DNA of 64,000 nt from Candidatus Nomurabacteria bacterium. Lineage in GTDB: Bacteria; Patescibacteriota; Patescibacteriia; UBA1558; GWA2-36-10. The notes beneath the pieces are model-generated. The model made no database searches and was not told where the DNA came from. It saw only the letters and a program-made list of their open reading frames with translations. The stretch covers positions 228,605 through 292,604 of the forward strand of contig JACKFO010000002.1 in the NCBI GenBank assembly GCA_020632415.1, in the 5' to 3' direction. Position numbers and translations under genes: made by a program. This document shows positions 7,764 through 58,238 of the stretch, piece by piece; position 1 is the first letter of the stretch; every line of letters begins with the position of its first letter.

Positions 7764-8567
7764 ATGGATTTATCGATTATCATTTTAAATTATTTTAATA
7801 AAGACTTAATTAGAGAATTATTAAAAAATATCTCCACTTTAAATTTGCCCTATAATTATGAAATCATTGTTGTAGACAATGCTTCTTATGACGGCATTGC
7901 TGAGCTAGTCAAAAATCAAGATAAAGTAAGGTTTATTCAAAATAGTGTTAATAGCGGTTTTGCTGCTGGAAATAATTTAGGCATCAAACAAGCCAAAGGA
8001 AAATATATTTTGATTTGTAATCCAGACTTAGCATTTTTTTCTCCAGCTATTGAAATTTTATATCAATATCTAGAAGTTCATCCAGAAGTTGCTTTAGCTG
8101 GGCCACGCCTGATCAATCCTGATAAAACTTTGCAATATTCAGCAACTGCTTTTCCAGATTGGCGCTTACCTTTTTTTCGTCGAACTTTTTTAAGTAAAAC
8201 AAAAAATGGTTCAGCTTGGCTGAAAAAATATTTATTAGCTGATCATGATCATCAAAAAAATTTTTATGCTCCAGCTTTGTTTGGTGCTTGTTTGCTAGTT
8301 AGAGCATCTTCTTTATTTAAAGTTGGTTTGTTAGACGAAAGGTATTTTATGTACATGGAAGATTTGGATTGGTCGCGACGTTTTTGGGAAAATGGTTTTA
8401 AAGTTGCTTATGTTGGAGAAGCAGAGGTAATTCACTTACACAAAAGAGATTCTGCTCAAAGTCTATTAAAAATATTTACCAAAAAAACTGCCCGAGCACA
8501 TATCTTTAGTTTTATTAAATATTTATGGAAATTTAGAGGGAAAAGTCAGCCAAAAACGGATTTTTAG
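7764..8567 (+). CDS. Glycosyltransferase family 2 (GT-A)
   Basis: 267 aa; LSIIILNYFN...VVDNASYDG...NSGFAAGNNLGI...CNPDL; paralogous to the two preceding GT2 genes. Confidence 0.75.
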   Translation: MDLSIIILNYFNKDLIRELLKNISTLNLPYNYEIIVVDNASYDGIAELVKNQDKVRFIQNSVNSGFAAGNNLGIKQAKGKYILICNPDLAFFSPAIEILYQYLEVHPEVALAGPRLINPDKTLQYSATAFPDWRLPFFRRTFLSKTKNGSAWLKKYLLADHDHQKNFYAPALFGACLLVRASSLFKVGLLDERYFMYMEDLDWSRRFWENGFKVAYVGEAEVIHLHKRDSAQSLLKIFTKKTARAHIFSFIKYLWKFRGKSQPKTDF

Positions 8568-8604
8568 TTTTCTTGCTTATTTTAGCTATTTTTACTAAAA
8601 TTAT

Positions 8605-8612
8605 TGTATAAT
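8605..8612 (+). promoter_or_regulatory. Extended -10 promoter (TGTATAAT) upstream of lysS
   Basis: ttatTGTATAATttttt 20 nt upstream of the ATG at 8632. Confidence 0.4.
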
Positions 8613-8631
8613 TTTTTGAATTACTATATTT

Positions 8632-10125
8632 ATGAATAATGATCATCAGGCAGAAATCAATATCAATGATGAATATCAACAAAGATTGTTGAAATTGGCT
8701 CGTTTGAGAGAAAATAAGCTTAATCCTTACCCTTCTCAGAGCTCAAAAAAGGCTCAAATTAGCGATTTTTTGACTGACTTCGAGTCTTTGGCTGAAAACA
8801 AGAAAAAAGTGGTTTTAGCCGGCCGTATTCGTAGCTTGCGTTTGCAAGGCGGTTCAGCTTTTTTGCATTTTGAAGATGAGAGTGGCAAGGTTCAAGCTTT
8901 TGTCCGTAAAGACAATCTTGGCGATGAAAATTATCAAGAGTTTAAAGATAATTATGATCTTGGAGATTTTGTTGAAATTACGGGGACAGCTTTTGAAACC
9001 AAAACCAAAGAACCAACAGTTTTAGCCGAAAGCGTCAAAATATTAAGCAAAACTTTATTGCCTTTACCGGACAAACATGCAGGCTTAAAAGACCCTGATT
9101 TAAGATTTAGAAAGAGATATTTAGACTTGCTAGCAAATTCTGAGGTCAAAGATGTTTTTAAATTACGTACAGCAATTATCAAAAATATCAGAGAATATTT
9201 TGATCAAGTTGGTTTTGTGGAAGTAGACACGCCAATTTTACAGACTGTTGCTGGCGGTGCAACGGCTGCCCCATTTATTACTCACCACAAAGCTTTGGAT
9301 ATTGATTTGTATTTACGAGTTGCTCCAGAACTTTATCTCAAAAGATTGATCATCGGTGGCTACGAACAAGTTTATGAAATTGCTCGTTGTTTTAGAAATG
9401 AAGGCATTGATCATCAGCATAATCCTGAGTTTACCCAAATTGAATTTTACTGGGCCTATAAAGATTATTTATTTTTAATGGACTTTATTGAAAAGTTTTT
9501 TGAACAATTAGTCAAAAAAGTAAACGGCGGAAGTTTGAAGGTAAAAAATGGTGATGACGTCATCGATTTTACTACTCCTTATCCACGCGTAGATTTTAAA
9601 GAAGCTTTAGATAAAGCCTTAAAGATTGATATTGATCAGACTTCTGATCAGGAGCTTGGTAAAATTGCTAAAGATGCTAAATTGCCAGTTGATAAGTCTT
9701 GGGGCCGTGGAAAATTATTGGATGAATTGTACAAAAAATTTGTCCGAGCCAAAATGATTCAGCCACATTTTATTATTAATCATCCTTTGGAGCTGTCACC
9801 TTTGGCCAAAAAAATAGTTGACCGACCAAATTACGTTGAGAGATTTCAATTGGTTGTAAAAACAGCAGAGGTTTGTAATGCCTTTTCAGAATTAAATGAC
9901 CCGATTGATCAAGAAGAAAGATTTAAAGAACAACAAAGATTAAAAGATGGCGGTGATGATGAGGCTCAGGGTGCAGATGCTGATTTCGTGGAAGCCTTGA
10001 AACACGGCATGCCTCCAACAGCAGGTTTGGGCATGGGCATTGATCGTTTAGTAATGTTGCTTGGTAATGTAGAAAATATCAAAGAAGTTATTTTCTTTCC
10101 TACGATGCGACCAAAAGAAAAATAA
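8632..10125 (+). CDS. lysS: Lysine--tRNA ligase, class II
   Basis: 497 aa; N-terminal OB-fold anticodon-binding region plus class II core ([20 protein letters not shown]). Confidence 0.9.
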
Positions 10126-14310: not shown

Positions 14311-15255
14311 ATGGCAAAATACACCCTTCCTCTCTTGGATGAGTTTTTAGAGAATATTCAGTCCAATAATTACTCCCCGGAGACAGTTTATAATTATGAA
14401 AGAGATTTAAATATTTTTGAAATATTTTTAAACGAGGATCTTCAGATTCCTTTTAAGGATTTAAGTAAAAGGACAATTATTAAATTCAAGGCCTACCTCT
14501 CCTCTACTTCTCGTCTAACACCAGCTCATGAGCTAGGTGAAAAACAATTAGTTAGTTTTAGTATTAATAGAATTTTATCAGCCTTGAGATCTTATTTAAA
14601 ATTTTTAGGAGAAATAGATTATAAAACTCCGGTGACTGCTGACGCTGTCAAACTTTTGAAAACTGAAAAAAAACATGCTCAAGTAGCAGAGATGAATGAA
14701 TTGATTGCAATTATTGAGGCGCCAAATAAGTTTGAAAAAGAAATAAATATTAAGCTACGTAATCGAGCAATGCTGGAAACCCTTTTTGCTACTGGCATGC
14801 GTATTTCAGAATTATTATCTTTGAAGCGCGAGCAATTAGATAACACTGGAAGAATTTATATTATGGGAAAAGGTAAAAAACAACGCTTTGTTTATTTGAC
14901 ACCCCGAGCTATTGAGCATTTACGTCTTTATCTAAAAACTAGAACTGACGAGTCTATGTATATGTTTATTCCTTATCGTGGTCGTAATAATCAAAGCAAA
15001 CACAAGAAAATTTCTAATAATTATCTTCAGTATAAATTAAAAAGATATCGTGAGTTATTAGGAATTAATATTCCTATTTCTCCTCATTCGCTTCGTCATG
15101 GCTTTGCGACCTATTTAGCTGAAAATGGGGCTAATCCGGCGGCAATTCAAATTCTTTTAGGACATGAGTCTTTGGATACTACGACACGCTATGTGCATGC
15201 TTCTGATAAATACGCTGAAAAAATGCATACTCAATTTCATCCTCTAAAAAAATAA
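14311..15255 (+). CDS. Tyrosine site-specific recombinase, XerC/XerD family (single Xer, XerS/XerH-like arrangement)
   Basis: 314 aa; C-terminal catalytic signature HSLRHGFATYLAENGANPAAIQILLGHESLDTTTRYVH (R..HxxR..Y). Confidence 0.85.
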   Translation: MAKYTLPLLDEFLENIQSNNYSPETVYNYERDLNIFEIFLNEDLQIPFKDLSKRTIIKFKAYLSSTSRLTPAHELGEKQLVSFSINRILSALRSYLKFLGEIDYKTPVTADAVKLLKTEKKHAQVAEMNELIAIIEAPNKFEKEINIKLRNRAMLETLFATGMRISELLSLKREQLDNTGRIYIMGKGKKQRFVYLTPRAIEHLRLYLKTRTDESMYMFIPYRGRNNQSKHKKISNNYLQYKLKRYRELLGINIPISPHSLRHGFATYLAENGANPAAIQILLGHESLDTTTRYVHASDKYAEKMHTQFHPLKK

Positions 15256-15278
15256 AGTCCCGAGCAACAGCACGGGAC
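15246..15278 (-). terminator. Rho-independent terminator (minus strand) for the small ORF
   Basis: Minus-strand reading: AGTCCCG-tgctgttgct-CGGGACT then TTTATTTTTTT. Confidence 0.6.
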
Positions 15279-15311
15279 TCGATGGTGTGAATGTCTAGCC
15301 AGACATCTTGC

Positions 15312-15458
15312 TCAGTGTGGCAGGAAACTGGCTACAAAGAGGCCGGCGAAAATGACCAGGATCAGTAGAACCAGTGTAGCTGGCCACTCAAAGCGTCTGA
15401 TTCGTTGGTCTTGATAGCCATTCAAGGCATTTTGCTTTTGTTGTTTGCGACTACTCAT
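15312..15458 (-). CDS. Small membrane protein (48 aa), in a GC-rich islet with own promoter, SD and terminator
   Basis: MSSRKQQKQNALNGYQDQRIRRFEWPATLVLLILVIFAGLFVASFLPH; strong SD AGGAGGAAA 6 nt upstream of ATG; basic N-terminus plus one TM helix; too short for the ORF track. Confidence 0.4.
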   Translation of the reverse strand: MSSRKQQKQNALNGYQDQRIRRFEWPATLVLLILVIFAGLFVASFLPH

Positions 15459-15500
15459 TGTCAGTTTCCTCCTCTAGTGGGTGAAGATCAGAATGGATTT

Positions 15501-15529
15501 ATTTTAAGCTTTTGTTGCTATTTTGTCAA
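15501..15529 (-). promoter_or_regulatory. Sigma-70-type promoter (minus strand) for the small ORF: TTGACA-16-TTAAAAT
   Basis: Minus-strand reading: attTTGACAaaatagcaacaaaagcTTAAAATaaatcc. Confidence 0.4.
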
Positions 15530-15533
15530 AATT

Positions 15534-46253: not shown

Positions 46254-46811
46254 TTAGCCCTTTTTTTCTTGATAAAGCTCTTGATTATAAAATTTAGCCA
46301 TAGCCATCAAAATACCGTTTTCAAAAGCTTCTTTCCTAGTAATAAAATCATTAGTTAATTCTCCGACTGTACCGTTGGTGCCCCGAACATTCAACTTAGA
46401 GAACATTTCTTCAGCTACAGGCGCTAACTCCCTACCTTTGTCCATGATCTCCACTTTGGCATATTTTGGTAATTCAATCGCTTCGCCATAAGCTAAGCTA
46501 TCTATTTGACCGTTAGTAACATAAATAGCGCCAATTAAAAAAAATTTTTCTTGGCCCAAAATATTATTTAGCCAAACTCCACCTTCAATTCCTAAATAAA
46601 AATCCGCCTCAATCCCCATTTTAATTAAATTCTGAGCACGATTATAAGCACCTTGAGTAGTTTCCTCTATGCCACGTGGTTGATCATCAACATCAGAATT
46701 GACTTTTTGACTAATGACTTTGATTTCTATTTGCGGATAAATTTTTGCAAAAGCATGTTTTACCGCTTCTACTTTTGGCTCTTGCATGGAAGCAATTGCA
46801 ACAGTAATCAT
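46254..46811 (-). CDS. Non-canonical purine NTP phosphatase, YjjX family (inosine/xanthosine triphosphatase)
   Basis: 185 aa; aligns with E. coli YjjX (..PRGIEETTQGAYNRAQN..ADFYLGIEGGV..). Confidence 0.65.
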   Translation of the reverse strand: MITVAIASMQEPKVEAVKHAFAKIYPQIEIKVISQKVNSDVDDQPRGIEETTQGAYNRAQNLIKMGIEADFYLGIEGGVWLNNILGQEKFFLIGAIYVTNGQIDSLAYGEAIELPKYAKVEIMDKGRELAPVAEEMFSKLNVRGTNGTVGELTNDFITRKEAFENGILMAMAKFYNQELYQEKKG

Positions 46812-46814
46812 ATC

Positions 46815-46845
46815 TTGACAATAAATAATTAATAATGTTTAATAT
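46815..46845 (+). promoter_or_regulatory. Strong sigma-70-type promoter TTGACA-17-TTTAAT(AT) driving the GC-rich islet
   Basis: tcTTGACAataaataattaataaTGtTTAATATaaaatc. Confidence 0.5.
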
Positions 46846-46890
46846 AAAATCTCGTTCTTTTCGGTCACTTCAAATAAGGAACAAAAGGCC

Positions 46891-47082
46891 ATGTGTCACC
46901 CCAACTATGCGGAAATCACTGAGGTCAAAAGAATTTTTGACCCCGTGGTTCGTGAAACCAGTCGCGTCAACGAAGCGCCGCAGGAGGTCAACAATCTTCT
47001 TCGAGATCCCAACTGGCATCTCTTGGACTTTCTGGCCTGCGGTGATCATCTGATTTGGATCTTGGGTAAAACCAAAGACTAG
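46891..47082 (+). CDS. Candidate small protein (63 aa) in GC-rich islet; alternatively a structured ncRNA of about 280 nt
   Basis: MCHPNYAEITEVKRIFDPVVRETSRVNEAPQEVNNLLRDPNWHLLDFLACGDHLIWILGKTKD; SD-like AAGGA 12 nt upstream; G+C about 50% against 30% flanks; bracketed by promoter and terminator. Confidence 0.3.
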   Translation: MCHPNYAEITEVKRIFDPVVRETSRVNEAPQEVNNLLRDPNWHLLDFLACGDHLIWILGKTKD

Positions 47083-47104
47083 GCGAAGCTCATGATTTTC
47101 AAAT

Positions 47105-47137
47105 CAAAGACCAACCCGACGAGGTTGGTTTTTTATT
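47105..47137. terminator. Rho-independent terminator (serves islet transcript; also fits the minus-strand NUDIX gene)
   Basis: AAAGACCAACC-cgacgag-GGTTGGTTTTTTATTT. Confidence 0.7.
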
Positions 47138-47528
47138 TAATAAACCCAAAGTGTTTGAGTGTCGGAATAATATTTAGTGCCAAATTATCTGGCAAATCAT
47201 CTATGTCAAACCATTGCCATTCTCTAATATCTTCACCGGGTTTTATCTCTCCAATTTTTTCTGCTAGCCAATGAACTAAAATCACATCGATCTTAACATC
47301 GGCCATTTCTTTAGTCGTGTAAGTAATAAATGGTCTAGGATTAGTGATTTTTATTTCAATCCCCATTTCTTCTTTGACTTCTCGAGCGGCAGCTTCTTGC
47401 AAATTTTGGTCATAATCCTCTACTTTCCCACCACAAAATTTCCAAAATTCAGTGTCGCCATGTTGGTTAAGTAATACTTTATTATCTTCGACAATAACGG
47501 GTCCAGAAGCAATGATTATTTTTTGCAT
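47133..47528 (-). CDS. NUDIX hydrolase
   Basis: 131 aa; Nudix box GGKVEDYDQNLQEAAAREVKEEMGI. Confidence 0.8.
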   Translation of the reverse strand: MQKIIIASGPVIVEDNKVLLNQHGDTEFWKFCGGKVEDYDQNLQEAAAREVKEEMGIEIKITNPRPFITYTTKEMADVKIDVILVHWLAEKIGEIKPGEDIREWQWFDIDDLPDNLALNIIPTLKHFGFIK

Positions 47529-47530
47529 AA

Positions 47531-49027
47531 TTATCTACCAATTTTAAATATCTCTGCTTTTTCCAAAGCCTTACTAGCTAGTTTGATTCTTTCAGGGGTT
47601 CTGGCATACAAAGTAAATAGACGTTCACCTTTTTTGACGTGATCTCCATATTCTTTGTTTAAATACACACCACCAAGTTTATCTGCTGGCGCGCCCAAAA
47701 TACGAGCCACGGTATTGATCATTTTATTGTCAGTAAAAGTAATGTGGCCAGATTTATTTGAATTAAAATATTTTTTATGGGCTGCTAACACTATGTCATC
47801 TGGCTCAATTTCCGGATTACCACCTTGAGCTTTGATAATTTCCTGCATCTTTTTCCAAGCCTGGCCGCTTTCTAGGGTTTTCCACGCCAAAGTCGCTCCG
47901 TGGCCTTTTTTGGCACGACCTGCAAGCTCTAGCAGCTCTCCAGCCAAATGAATCGCCTTATTGGCTAAATCTGCTGGATAATTTGCTTTTTGCTGTAAGA
48001 CTCTTAAAACATCTCTGGCTTCTAAGGCTGGGCCAACACCCTTACCAACTGGATCTTCGGTCTGGATCATAATCACTTTAATTTTGATACCAAACTTTTT
48101 AGCAATATATTTAAATTTTGTTTCCAAATCTTTGGCAGTTTTCATGTCAGGAATTTTAGTTGTCTTCCCAACCGGCATATCAATGATCAAATGAGTCACG
48201 CCAGTAGCTACTTTTTTAGCCATAATACTGACTAACATTTTGCTATAAGGTTCCAAAGAAAGTGGATAAGAAACTTTCAAAATTTTATCGTCAGCTGGTG
48301 CTAAATTTAAACCACCGCCCCAAACCAAACAGCCTTTGTGTTTTTTGACAATCTCTTTGATCTTGGCAGCTGGAAAAGATACCGGCGCTAAAACTTCCAT
48401 GGTGTCTGAAGTGCCGGCCGGCGAAGTGATTGCTCGCGAAGAAGTTTTGGGAATAGTTAATCCCAAAGAAGCAATAATTGGAATCACAACCATTGTTGTT
48501 CTATTTCCAGCTAATCCGCCAACAGAATGTTTGTCCACCACCATTCCTGGAAATTTGAAAGTTTCGCCAGTTTCCGCCATGGCCTTAGTCATGAAATATA
48601 ATTCTTCATTAGAATATTCACGCATAAAGCCAGAAGCAACGAAATAAGTTGTTTCCGTACGAGTCAAAACACCAGAAGAAATGTCAGCGAAAATTTGATA
48701 AAACTCTTGATAAGTTAATTTTTTACCCAAAAGCCTTTTCTTAATCGCCTGAACTGATGGCGCTCTCTCTAAAAAATGAATTTCCACAATAGTATTTGCC
48801 GAAATTTTGCTTTTTTCCCAAATATCTTTGTACAAGCCAATTTGTCCGGGCTTGATAGTTTTGGCAGAAGTATTTGCTTCGGCAATAATATTTTTGTCTT
48901 GCCAACAAATTTTTATTTTATCACCAGCGCGAATACCATAACGCATGGCCTCATCAACGTTTAATAAAGCAATGTTTGATTGTCCGGTTTTAATATCAAG
49001 TTTTTTTATTTTTAAATAGTAGGCCAT
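47531..49027 (-). CDS. AMP phosphorylase-like enzyme (thymidine/pyrimidine-nucleoside phosphorylase family with N-terminal extension)
   Basis: 498 aa; family motifs VDKHSVGGLAGNRTTMVV and TSSRAITSPAGTSDTMEVL; length and N-terminal extension favour AMP phosphorylase over thymidine phosphorylase. Confidence 0.6.
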   Translation of the reverse strand: MAYYLKIKKLDIKTGQSNIALLNVDEAMRYGIRAGDKIKICWQDKNIIAEANTSAKTIKPGQIGLYKDIWEKSKISANTIVEIHFLERAPSVQAIKKRLLGKKLTYQEFYQIFADISSGVLTRTETTYFVASGFMREYSNEELYFMTKAMAETGETFKFPGMVVDKHSVGGLAGNRTTMVVIPIIASLGLTIPKTSSRAITSPAGTSDTMEVLAPVSFPAAKIKEIVKKHKGCLVWGGGLNLAPADDKILKVSYPLSLEPYSKMLVSIMAKKVATGVTHLIIDMPVGKTTKIPDMKTAKDLETKFKYIAKKFGIKIKVIMIQTEDPVGKGVGPALEARDVLRVLQQKANYPADLANKAIHLAGELLELAGRAKKGHGATLAWKTLESGQAWKKMQEIIKAQGGNPEIEPDDIVLAAHKKYFNSNKSGHITFTDNKMINTVARILGAPADKLGGVYLNKEYGDHVKKGERLFTLYARTPERIKLASKALEKAEIFKIGR

Positions 49028-57773: not shown

Positions 57774-57848
57774 TCGGGGATCGTCTAATTGGTAGGACGA
57801 CTGGTTCTGGTCCAGTTAATCGGGGTTCAAATCCCTGTCCCCGAGCCA
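57774..57848 (+). tRNA. tRNA-Gln (anticodon CUG)
   Basis: 75 nt cloverleaf folded by hand: acceptor TCGGGGA/TCCCCGA (U1:A72), D-arm GTCT/GGAC, anticodon arm ACTGG-TTCTGGT-CCAGT, T-arm CGGGG-TTCAAAT-CCCTG, G73, encoded CCA. Confidence 0.8.
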
Positions 57849-57913
57849 AGCGAATGAAGTGAGCGTAGGTTCGGGATTGATAAAATTGAGTCGGAGACGA
57901 AAATCCTAAGATG

Positions 57914-57956
57914 CTGGACAATGGTCCAGCGCCCCGAGCCAAGCGAATGAAGTGAG
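57914..57956 (+). repeat. Degenerate duplicate of the tRNA-Gln 3' half (anticodon-arm-like hairpin plus 25-nt exact repeat of tRNA 3' end and trailer)
   Basis: CCCCGAGCCAAGCGAATGAAGTGAG at 57839-57863 and 57932-57956; preceded by CTGGACAATGGTCCAG, which resembles the anticodon arm. Confidence 0.6.
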
Positions 57957-57980: not shown

Positions 57981-58007
57981 AATAAAAAAGCCCGACCGAA
58001 GTCAGGC
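57981..58007 (-). terminator. Rho-independent terminator (minus strand) for the 58002-58238 gene
   Basis: Minus-strand reading: GCCTGAC-ttcg-GTCGGGC followed by TTTTTTATTT. Confidence 0.6.
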
Positions 58008-58238
58008 TGTTGGTGAAACTGGATCTTTTTCTACTTCAGAAAGCGTAATCATATAGCTTTCGCTTCCAACGATCTTGTGCCACTGACCAAGAAAATGAAT
58101 GATCCGCACGCCTTTGTTTTCTGCGATACTAATGATGATCATCTCAGAGGTAATGCTGTAAGAGAACACGTGAACGTTCTCTGTGTGGCCAGCTCGATCA
58201 GTCAGAAGAAGCTCTGTGCCCTTAGAAAAAATCTTCAT
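58002..58238 (-). CDS. Hypothetical small protein (78 aa)
   Basis: ORF with good downstream terminator; no motifs recognised. Confidence 0.4.
   Translation of the reverse strand: MKIFSKGTELLLTDRAGHTENVHVFSYSITSEMIIISIAENKGVRIIHFLGQWHKIVGSESYMITLSEVEKDPVSPTA

Follow-up and report, generated by a model that had tools for sequence, protein, structure and literature searches.

The window analysed here is a stretch of 64,000 nucleotides from Candidatus Nomurabacteria bacterium (assembly GCA_020632415.1, contig JACKFO010000002.1, positions 228,605 to 292,604 of the forward strand). The subject of this study is a G+C-rich islet in the 321-nt intergenic gap between a DUF84 gene and a NUDIX hydrolase gene, which contains an open reading frame (ORF) for a protein of 63 amino acids. 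As described below, this islet is very probably a stand-alone monocistronic gene for a small protein that was apparently missed in the GenBank annotation. The features of the locus, in coordinates of the window, are as follows.

46254-46811, minus strand: DUF84 (NTPase_I-T) gene, the left flank of the islet
46815-46820, plus strand: -35 box TTGACA, beginning 3 nt away from the DUF84 start codon on the opposite strand
46838-46843, plus strand: -10-like hexamer TTTAAT, 17 nt past the -35 box, with a putative promoter role
46841-46868, minus strand: candidate DUF84 promoter GTGACC-16-TATATT, found by scanning with 9 of 12 matches
46850-46890, plus strand: putative 5' untranslated region (UTR), counted from the predicted transcription start
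46876-46880, plus strand: Shine-Dalgarno (SD)-like motif AAGGA, about 10 nt before the ATG
46891-47082, plus strand: coding sequence (CDS) of the 63-aa protein including the stop codon, MCHPNYAEITEVKRIFDPVVRETSRVNEAPQEVNNLLRDPNWHLLDFLACGDHLIWILGKTKD
46923-46942, plus strand: hairpin GGTCAAAA-gaat-TTTTGACC, over the codons for VKRIFD
47106-47134, both strands: intrinsic terminator, stem 47110-47116 / 47123-47129, then a T-run
47133-47528, minus strand: NUDIX hydrolase gene, the right flank, convergent with the small gene
47531-49027: AMP/thymidine phosphorylase-type gene, next to the NUDIX gene

An exact look-up identified the flanking proteins as MCB9802654.1 (DUF84) and MCB9802655.1 (NUDIX), encoded on a contig of 842 kb. 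Because these accession numbers are consecutive, it appears that GenBank, by the Prokaryotic Genome Annotation Pipeline (PGAP), has no CDS called between them. The 63-aa ORF was called by the gene caller of the Logan collection. Over 200 nt, the G+C content of the islet peaks at 50.5%, which is in the top 0.02% of such windows, and the 64 kb hold five peaks at this level, the islet included, against a mean of 33.6%. The first-pass annotation, which was made from the sequence alone, had described a block of about 50% G+C in a genome of 30% G+C; the former value was reproduced, whereas the latter was slightly low for the window. By codon position, the G+C content of the 63-aa ORF was 0.57/0.33/0.57, and thus three-periodic.

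To search for homologues, the 63-aa query was used in a word-indexed protein search, which gave no match besides the query itself. GTDB species genomes were also scanned with the neighbouring AMP phosphorylase, resulting in 17 syntenic loci, and blastn of the islet against these loci found no copy. The impression of an orphan insertion that this blastn result gave was superseded by an exhaustive phmmer search against 1.84 billion representatives, in which three homologous proteins were found, P0007 (137 aa, E 6.4e-16, two matched stretches), P0008 (78 aa, E 9e-8) and P0009 (78 aa, E 3.9e-7). A profile search, in which the family matches had E-values of 1e-29 to 9e-63, added P0012 (137 aa). Two more phmmer matches were discounted as long, internally repetitive proteins with 5-7 matched stretches each. 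The family consists of five members, two of which, at the loci designated L019 and L023, carry a 59-residue tandem duplication of the domain, in frame and head-to-tail. Thirteen alignment columns are invariant (K13, R14, I15, D17, V19, V20, W42, G51, D52, H53, L54, W56 and L58; alignment A1).

All five members are located at one syntenic spot, where they are transcribed divergently from the DUF84/NTPase_I-T gene on the other strand. The homologue loci share the flank mnmA - DUF2238 - alaS, and the small gene occupies a variable interval with DUF84 on one side and the AMP-phosphorylase/NUDIX genes on the other; several of the 17 loci retain the order TrwB - AMP phosphorylase - NUDIX - DUF84 - mnmA - DUF2238 - alaS. 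The association with DUF84 was observed in all five carriers, and NUDIX was detected beside the small gene in the window only (none of the four others). In the window, the neighbours of the small gene are three genes of nucleotide metabolism (AMP/thymidine phosphorylase-type, NUDIX hydrolase and DUF84 NTPase), and all three enzymes are kept by relatives without the small gene.

The family was further compared with curated and environmental collections. No member matched any Pfam family at E values up to 10, the best PHROGs match (E 0.46) was not meaningful, and a PDB sequence-profile search gave chance-level matches only. A PADLOC match of one member to LmuA/DUF4297 (E 2.5e-4, 18.6 bits, 33 residues) was taken as chance. 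Back-translated scans of the Joint Genome Institute (JGI) metagenome and viral collections and tblastn against phage and plasmid records did not find any family members. As far as these sequence searches indicate, the family is undescribed and confined to a few closely related Candidatus Nomurabacteria-like genomes of the candidate phyla radiation (CPR).

The coding character of the islet was evaluated by comparing the five orthologous loci (the window, L019, L020, L022 and L023). Internal stops were absent from frame +0 in all five, whereas every other frame was interrupted by them in three or more of the four relatives. A 72-aa frame on the plus strand and a 59-aa frame on the minus strand were open in the window genome alone and interrupted by stops in the majority or the whole of the orthologous loci; the openness of a second, overlapping frame, which the first-pass annotation had taken as typical of structured RNA, thus fails as an argument, since that frame is closed in the relatives. 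In the codon alignment, conserved Leu, Gly, Asp, Val and Arg residues were encoded by codons that vary synonymously at the third position, and the sole internal indel was one whole codon, in L020. Furthermore, the ratio of nonsynonymous to synonymous substitution rates (dN/dS), estimated by the Nei-Gojobori method, was 0.17-0.40 in every unsaturated pair. According to these alignments, purifying selection acts on the 63-aa frame, which is conserved. The predicted tryptic peptides of the protein include IFDPVVR and DPNWHLLDFLACGDHLIWILGK.

With regard to expression, transcription would start about 7 nt beyond the -10-like TTTAAT, giving a leader of about 40 nt with the AAGGA motif; translation would start from the ATG at 46891, and the transcript would end at the hairpin and T-run at 47106-47134, which would serve the convergent NUDIX gene too. 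The upstream alignment (A2) indicated that TTGACA is invariant across all five loci and that the 17-nt spacer, ending in (A/G)TG, is kept in the relatives, which have TTTAAA, GTTAAA, GTTCAA or TTTAGA at the -10 position. The consensus-like promoter proposed at 46815 in the first-pass annotation is present as TTGACA-17-TTTAAT, though the -10 hexamer agrees with the consensus at five of six positions, T replacing A, the most conserved consensus base, at position 2. A generic promoter scan did not list it, because the rule of the scan demands A at that position. The pattern TTGACA-N16-18-TWWAAT occurs four times in the window against 0.84 expected, and two of the four belong to this islet and to another one at 15246-15533, referred to below as islet 1. 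In the 5' UTR, the block ATAAAATC..GTTC is conserved among the relatives (A2). The 63-aa ORF was found behind AAGGA, as previously noted; AAGGA aligns with GGAGG in L020, and AGGAG occurs at the equivalent position before a GTG in L019, L022 and L023, so that SD-like motifs lie 6-11 nt ahead of the proposed starts in the five loci.

At the 3' end, the terminator stem consists of seven perfect pairs with a 6-nt loop, and the terminator scan extends it to 11 pairs (47106-47133) with one G-T. A perfect hairpin had been claimed together with a run of seven T, and the former was found as claimed, whereas the run is T6 followed by ATTT. Across the five loci (alignment A3), the stem ACCAACC(C)/(G)GGTTGGT is maintained while the loops differ. 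Because the terminator is scored on both strands and the NUDIX stop codon (47133-47135) falls within the T-run, a single terminator probably ends both the small gene and the convergent NUDIX gene. The small protein, one of the identities that had been left open for the islet, is thus well supported by the homologues, the conserved frame, the purifying selection and the arrangement of putative promoter, putative ribosome-binding site and terminator.

The position of the start codon requires consideration, as gene callers begin the ORF at an ATG within the promoter spacer in L019, L022 and L023. We think that these called starts are wrong and that the true start is further downstream, because the resulting 16-residue N-terminal extension is variable (7 of 16 positions differ between L019 and L023, compared with 4 of 62 in the rest of the domain), because it has a predicted local distance difference test (pLDDT) score below 35 in the AlphaFold model of the tandem homologue, and because AGGAG is present 6 nt upstream of the GTG at codon 17 in all three loci. 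A product of about 62-72 residues would fit every single-domain locus. The same observations bear on an alternative in which the 63-aa ORF is the decaying pseudogene remnant of a longer gene that once started at the ATG at 46835. This ATG corresponds in the alignment to the point where the 78-aa and 137-aa homologues are called to begin, and in the window it is not in frame with the domain, nor is the corresponding ATG or GTG in L020, which would be consistent with decay. However, its position is within the conserved spacer that separates TTGACA from the -10-like hexamer, the extension that it would open is the variable and poorly modelled part, the shorter model suits all five loci, and the window preserves the domain in full. 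A pseudogene is hence very improbable.

Several points weigh against the assignment of the islet as a small-protein gene with the model and function proposed here. The gene model and the coding claim are predictions from sequence, and PGAP appears to have called no CDS at the islet. Position 2 of the -10 hexamer is T instead of the canonical A, and the SD-like motif is about 10 nt from the start codon, toward the long end of such spacings. The family comprises only five loci in a single clade. The G+C content at third codon positions (GC3) is 0.57 in the 63-aa gene compared with 0.17-0.32 in the other 58 listed ORFs of the window, for which simple coding gives no explanation. As for the product, the structural model of the tandem protein disagrees with that of the 63-aa protein on the first element, and the functional guess given below is based on the tandem duplication and the distribution alone.

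The G+C content, which is high for intergenic DNA in an AT-rich genome, also raises the alternative that the transcript of about 280 nt is a structured non-coding RNA or riboregulator and that the ORF is incidental. In its favour, the stable hairpin pointed out at 46923-46942 is indeed present and, as a 6-8 bp stem, was the sole helix kept throughout the seven homologous copies of the domain, with two pairs changed on both sides, and shuffling of synonymous codons gave z-scores of -1.7 (window) and -2.0 (L020). However, the corresponding values for the other three loci were +1.2, 0.0 and -0.7, indicating no consistent excess of mRNA structure. Folding of the 296-nt transcript gave z-scores of -1.78 (plus strand) and -1.26 (minus strand), neither of which was significant, and RNAalifold on the seven domain copies gave a consensus of -13 kcal/mol with a covariation term of only -0.42 kcal/mol, although the power of this test is low with seven sequences. 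Pairing in the hairpin was 93.9%; column shuffles gave 90.7%, and the observed value was reached by 40 of the 500. The hairpin, moreover, lies over the motif [VI]KRI[FL]D, the most conserved of the family. Since this many column shuffles match the observed pairing, the conserved peptide explains the hairpin, and RNAalifold together with pair counting gave no supported structure besides the terminator.

Database comparison for RNA families was also negative. With Rfam 15, whose families include RNase P RNA, tmRNA, SRP RNA, 6S RNA and riboswitches, only the tRNA-Gln at 57774 was found in the whole window at gathering thresholds, in agreement with ARAGORN; at permissive thresholds, the best matches on the islet were at most 16.7 bits with E values of at least 0.25, mostly over the terminator, and no family was found on seven related loci. 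A hit to a housekeeping RNA, which the first-pass annotation itself had named as what would refute it, was therefore not obtained, and its riboregulator or structured-RNA option is not supported by these null results. Considering also that the pattern of substitutions is of the protein type, the structured-RNA alternative is largely refuted by the protein-level conservation, and we regard it as highly improbable.

The distribution of the small gene is patchy. L019, L022 and L023 are mutually 96-97% identical in DUF84 and 98-99% in mnmA, and L004 is without the small gene despite DUF84 being 92-93% identical to theirs, so presence varies within a tight group. The gene is likewise absent from L002, L003 and L006, and these four relatives are as close as carriers or closer. 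NUDIX and DUF84 are 4 nt apart in L002, and the gap of about 100 nt in L004 and L006 contains nothing but a terminator and the promoter of DUF84. When the window is compared with the other carriers, the neighbouring proteins are 71-82% identical, against 38-44% for the small protein. In the L022 allele, the protein is only 56% identical to those of L019 and L023, and synonymous differences occur at 33% of the conserved codons of the gene (1455-1641) compared with 14% in DUF84, with a leader that is 89% identical to the L019 leader. This suggests an allele replacement or locally accelerated change, as far as so few sequences can indicate.

Other cargo was observed around the same genes. In L003 (7860-8810), the NUDIX-DUF84 gap is occupied by an unrelated 930-bp gene on the opposite strand, the product of which (about 230 aa) has a CxxC...CxxC motif near its N-terminus and internal repeats in its C-terminal half, and the gap seems to be a slot for variable cargo. 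L022 has an extra stretch of about 120 nt (1185-1300) between the DUF84 promoter and the cassette, relatively G+C-rich and followed by a terminator-like hairpin of its own, for which Rfam gave no family but terminator-type chance matches only. L002, without the 63-aa gene, has an orphan cassette on the opposite strand between DUF84 and mnmA (8420-8850), which consists of a promoter-like TTGACA, an SD, an ORF for a 75-aa hypothetical protein found on 29 contigs, and a terminator. This 75-aa protein looked related by eye (BLASTP E 0.005 over 20 residues), but homology to the 63-aa family was not supported, hhalign against the family profile giving a probability of 0.4%.

These findings bear on the alternative that the cassette is a horizontally moving module, recently inserted in an intergenic hot spot from a G+C-richer donor. 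Consistent with it, GC3 is about twice that of the host, the four relatives without the gene are no more distant than the carriers, the borders of presence and absence fall exactly at the -35 box and past the terminator, the gap holds other cargo in L003 and further genes in L019 and L023, and the synonymous differences of the L022 allele exceed those of the adjacent DUF84. However, all five members are at the same locus in one clade, the synonymous divergence (dS) of the small gene between L019 and L023 is 0.19, similar to the 0.17-0.27 of its neighbours, and the L022 leader has remained close to that of L019 where the coding part has not. No relatives were found in viral contigs, phage and plasmid records or JGI metagenome contigs, and there were neither flanking direct or inverted repeats nor an adjacent recombinase gene. 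For horizontal acquisition, which had also been considered in the first-pass annotation, the atypical composition and the patchiness speak in favour, whereas relatives outside the clade, phage or plasmid matches and flanking repeats as marks of mobility were not found. We consider a recent insertion of this kind to be unlikely.

The composition in the orthologues is of further relevance. Their GC3 was 0.39-0.46, above a host level of about 0.26, which was measured on the ORFs of the window only, the orthologue loci having a similar overall G+C content of 0.33-0.35. As synonymous sites are saturated between the deeper lineages of the family and GC3 is still above the host level, a recent transfer followed by drift to the host composition does not fit well with this persistent excess.

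A role of the islet beyond its protein may be considered in relation to the divergent DUF84 gene. The candidate DUF84 promoter at 46841-46868 overlaps the -10 region and the 5' UTR of the small gene and was the only candidate found on the DUF84 strand, and the DUF84 promoter/leader block of about 50 nt that is present in L004, L006, L019, L022 and L023 is absent from the window. Such a back-to-back overlap, if the predicted promoters are real, may couple the expression of DUF84 and the small gene or make them mutually exclusive. The small gene could then have a dual function, encoding a protein and also regulating DUF84 in cis by its mRNA or promoter, either through the overlapping promoters or through antisense pairing with the DUF84 transcript, the latter requiring a DUF84 transcript that starts within or reads through the small gene. 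Selection at the RNA level would, in this case, hold the G+C content high, in line with GC3 being above the host level in all five orthologues (0.39-0.58 against about 0.26) despite the saturation of synonymous sites at depth; the 3-nt distance from the -35 box to the DUF84 start, with the usual promoter block missing, and the overlap with the sole promoter candidate are also compatible with it. However, the promoters are separate in L019, L022 and L023, the overlap being specific to the window genome, the excess of mRNA structure is not consistent, and the 9/12 match on the minus strand is of the kind expected by chance. The dual function is accordingly doubtful, and we would expect it to be wrong.

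The product of the small-protein gene was characterized by prediction. The 63-aa protein has no signal peptide, membrane helix or hydrophobic segment and is likely to be soluble, mildly acidic and single-domain. AlphaFold2 with the five-sequence alignment gave a model with a pLDDT of 84.9 and a predicted template modelling (pTM) score of 0.68, in which a strand (9-18), a helix (29-37) and two strands (42-50 and 53-61) are arranged in the order beta-alpha-beta-beta. The model of the tandem homologue was poor (pLDDT 51), with a helix instead of a strand as the first element, and the predicted fold is tentative for this reason. No significant structural neighbour was found in the PDB (Z up to 5.2, identity 5-20%, best Foldseek E 0.15). 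A superficial likeness to the HicA toxins, which have a helix, G[FW].L and a G[SD]H motif, was also examined, in which EEGWELL....GDHL of the 63-aa protein would correspond to GF.L...GSH of HicA. It was rejected, as hhalign against an approximate sequence of E. coli HicA gave a probability of 0.2%; the negative Pfam result and the lack of a partner antitoxin gene also speak against it.

As to function, it may be possible that the protein is a small soluble dimeric module that binds a partner, either protein or nucleic acid, and is not an enzyme, which we offer as a tentative guess. Dimerization would be the most likely arrangement because two relatives carry the in-frame head-to-tail duplication of the domain, which is the one clue to mechanism. 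Given the patchy presence, the fast sequence change and the odd composition, the role of the protein may be accessory and dispensable, and not a core one.

Apart from the islet, the window contains further small GC3-rich ORFs, as follows.

15246-15533, minus strand: islet 1, with TTGACA at 15529-15524, a 17-nt spacer, TAAAAT at 15506-15501 and AGGAGG
15312-15458, minus strand: 48-aa ORF of islet 1, MSSRKQQKQNALNGYQDQRIRRFEWPATLVLLILVIFAGLFVASFLPH, with one hydrophobic helix and a GC3 of 0.50
58002-58238, minus strand: 78-aa ORF with a GC3 of 0.46, just downstream of a dnaX-like gene

Islet 1 has its terminator in common with the convergent gene for a XerC-like recombinase (14311-15255), and its 48-aa protein has an exact match in the Logan collection, where it is a singleton. 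The resemblance in architecture between the two islets that had been remarked upon is borne out: both have TTGACA-17-T(A/T)(A/T)AAT, an SD, a short ORF with a GC3 near 0.5 and a terminator shared with a convergent gene. The products differ in that the 48-aa protein has a predicted membrane helix and the 63-aa protein has none, and there is no sequence similarity between them. The 78-aa ORF is preceded by GGAGG 8 nt before its ATG and followed by a hairpin and T-run after its stop, and it showed no similarity to the 63-aa protein by eye. Near it, a 25-nt direct repeat, CCCCGAGCCAAGCGAATGAAGTGAG (plus strand), is present at 57839-57863 and 57932-57956, 93 nt apart; the first copy comprises the last 10 nt of the tRNA-Gln and the next 15 nt, and the repeat may represent what is left of an integration site or a tRNA that was duplicated in part.

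A TTGACA-type promoter was found for two of the three small ORFs (those of the 63-aa and 48-aa proteins, which were the ones examined), and all three end in a hairpin and T-run. It is conceivable, though improbable in our view, that the three represent a class of fast-evolving micro-gene cassettes that are gained and lost in the intergenic slots of CPR genomes. In such a class, selection, and not recent transfer, could hold the G+C content high, because synonymous sites are saturated and GC3 has not decayed to the host level; the mRNAs would possibly be unusually stable or act as RNA, for example by interfering with the overlapping DUF84 promoter. If this were true, a role of the products in conflicts with phages or host cells would be conceivable.

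Taken together, this study adds to a CPR genome a protein gene that public annotation appears to skip, and it presents a new five-member family that is absent from the curated protein libraries Pfam, PHROGs and PADLOC. With respect to methodology, an exhaustive HMMER search recovered a family that a word-indexed search missed entirely. The only unusual aspects of the gene are its persistent G+C excess and its patchy, fast-changing distribution, the patchiness being seen among genomes whose neighbouring genes are 92-99% identical. Although the practical value is modest, the composition is of some biological interest, as this gene and the two other small ORFs of the window have about twice the third-position G+C content of the host. 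More generally, it is indicated that a G+C-rich islet with the appearance of a structured RNA in an AT-rich genome can be a gene for a small protein.

Comparison of the product with known proteins led to common folds. Among the small beta-alpha-beta-beta domains in the PDB, the nearest were YdgH/DUF1471 (2m2j, 4evu and 2jna), the GFRP (6z80_L) and Alba (8xap and 1nh9). No sequence relationship to these domains was found. The PDB depositions of DUF1471 proteins describe them as periplasmic or secreted, whereas the 63-aa protein is without a hydrophobic N-terminus, and the likeness to DUF1471, GFRP and Alba is that of a very common small fold and not of membership. At the level of the gene, a parallel is provided by the ORFs found with a pipeline for GC-rich intergenic regions (GC-IGRs) of AT-rich genomes, in which about one-third of the unknown GC-rich intergenic regions were missed protein genes and about one-quarter were short ORFs (Stav et al, 2019; PMC6429828). 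Similar to these GC-IGR ORFs, the islet is a long G+C-rich intergenic region resembling a structured RNA and has a conserved ORF with a ribosome-binding site and a terminator stem as its only convincing structure. As that study describes a category and not a family, the likeness is one of category only (PMC6429828), and, within it, a small protein is a known kind of outcome for the GC-rich intergenic regions of AT-rich genomes.

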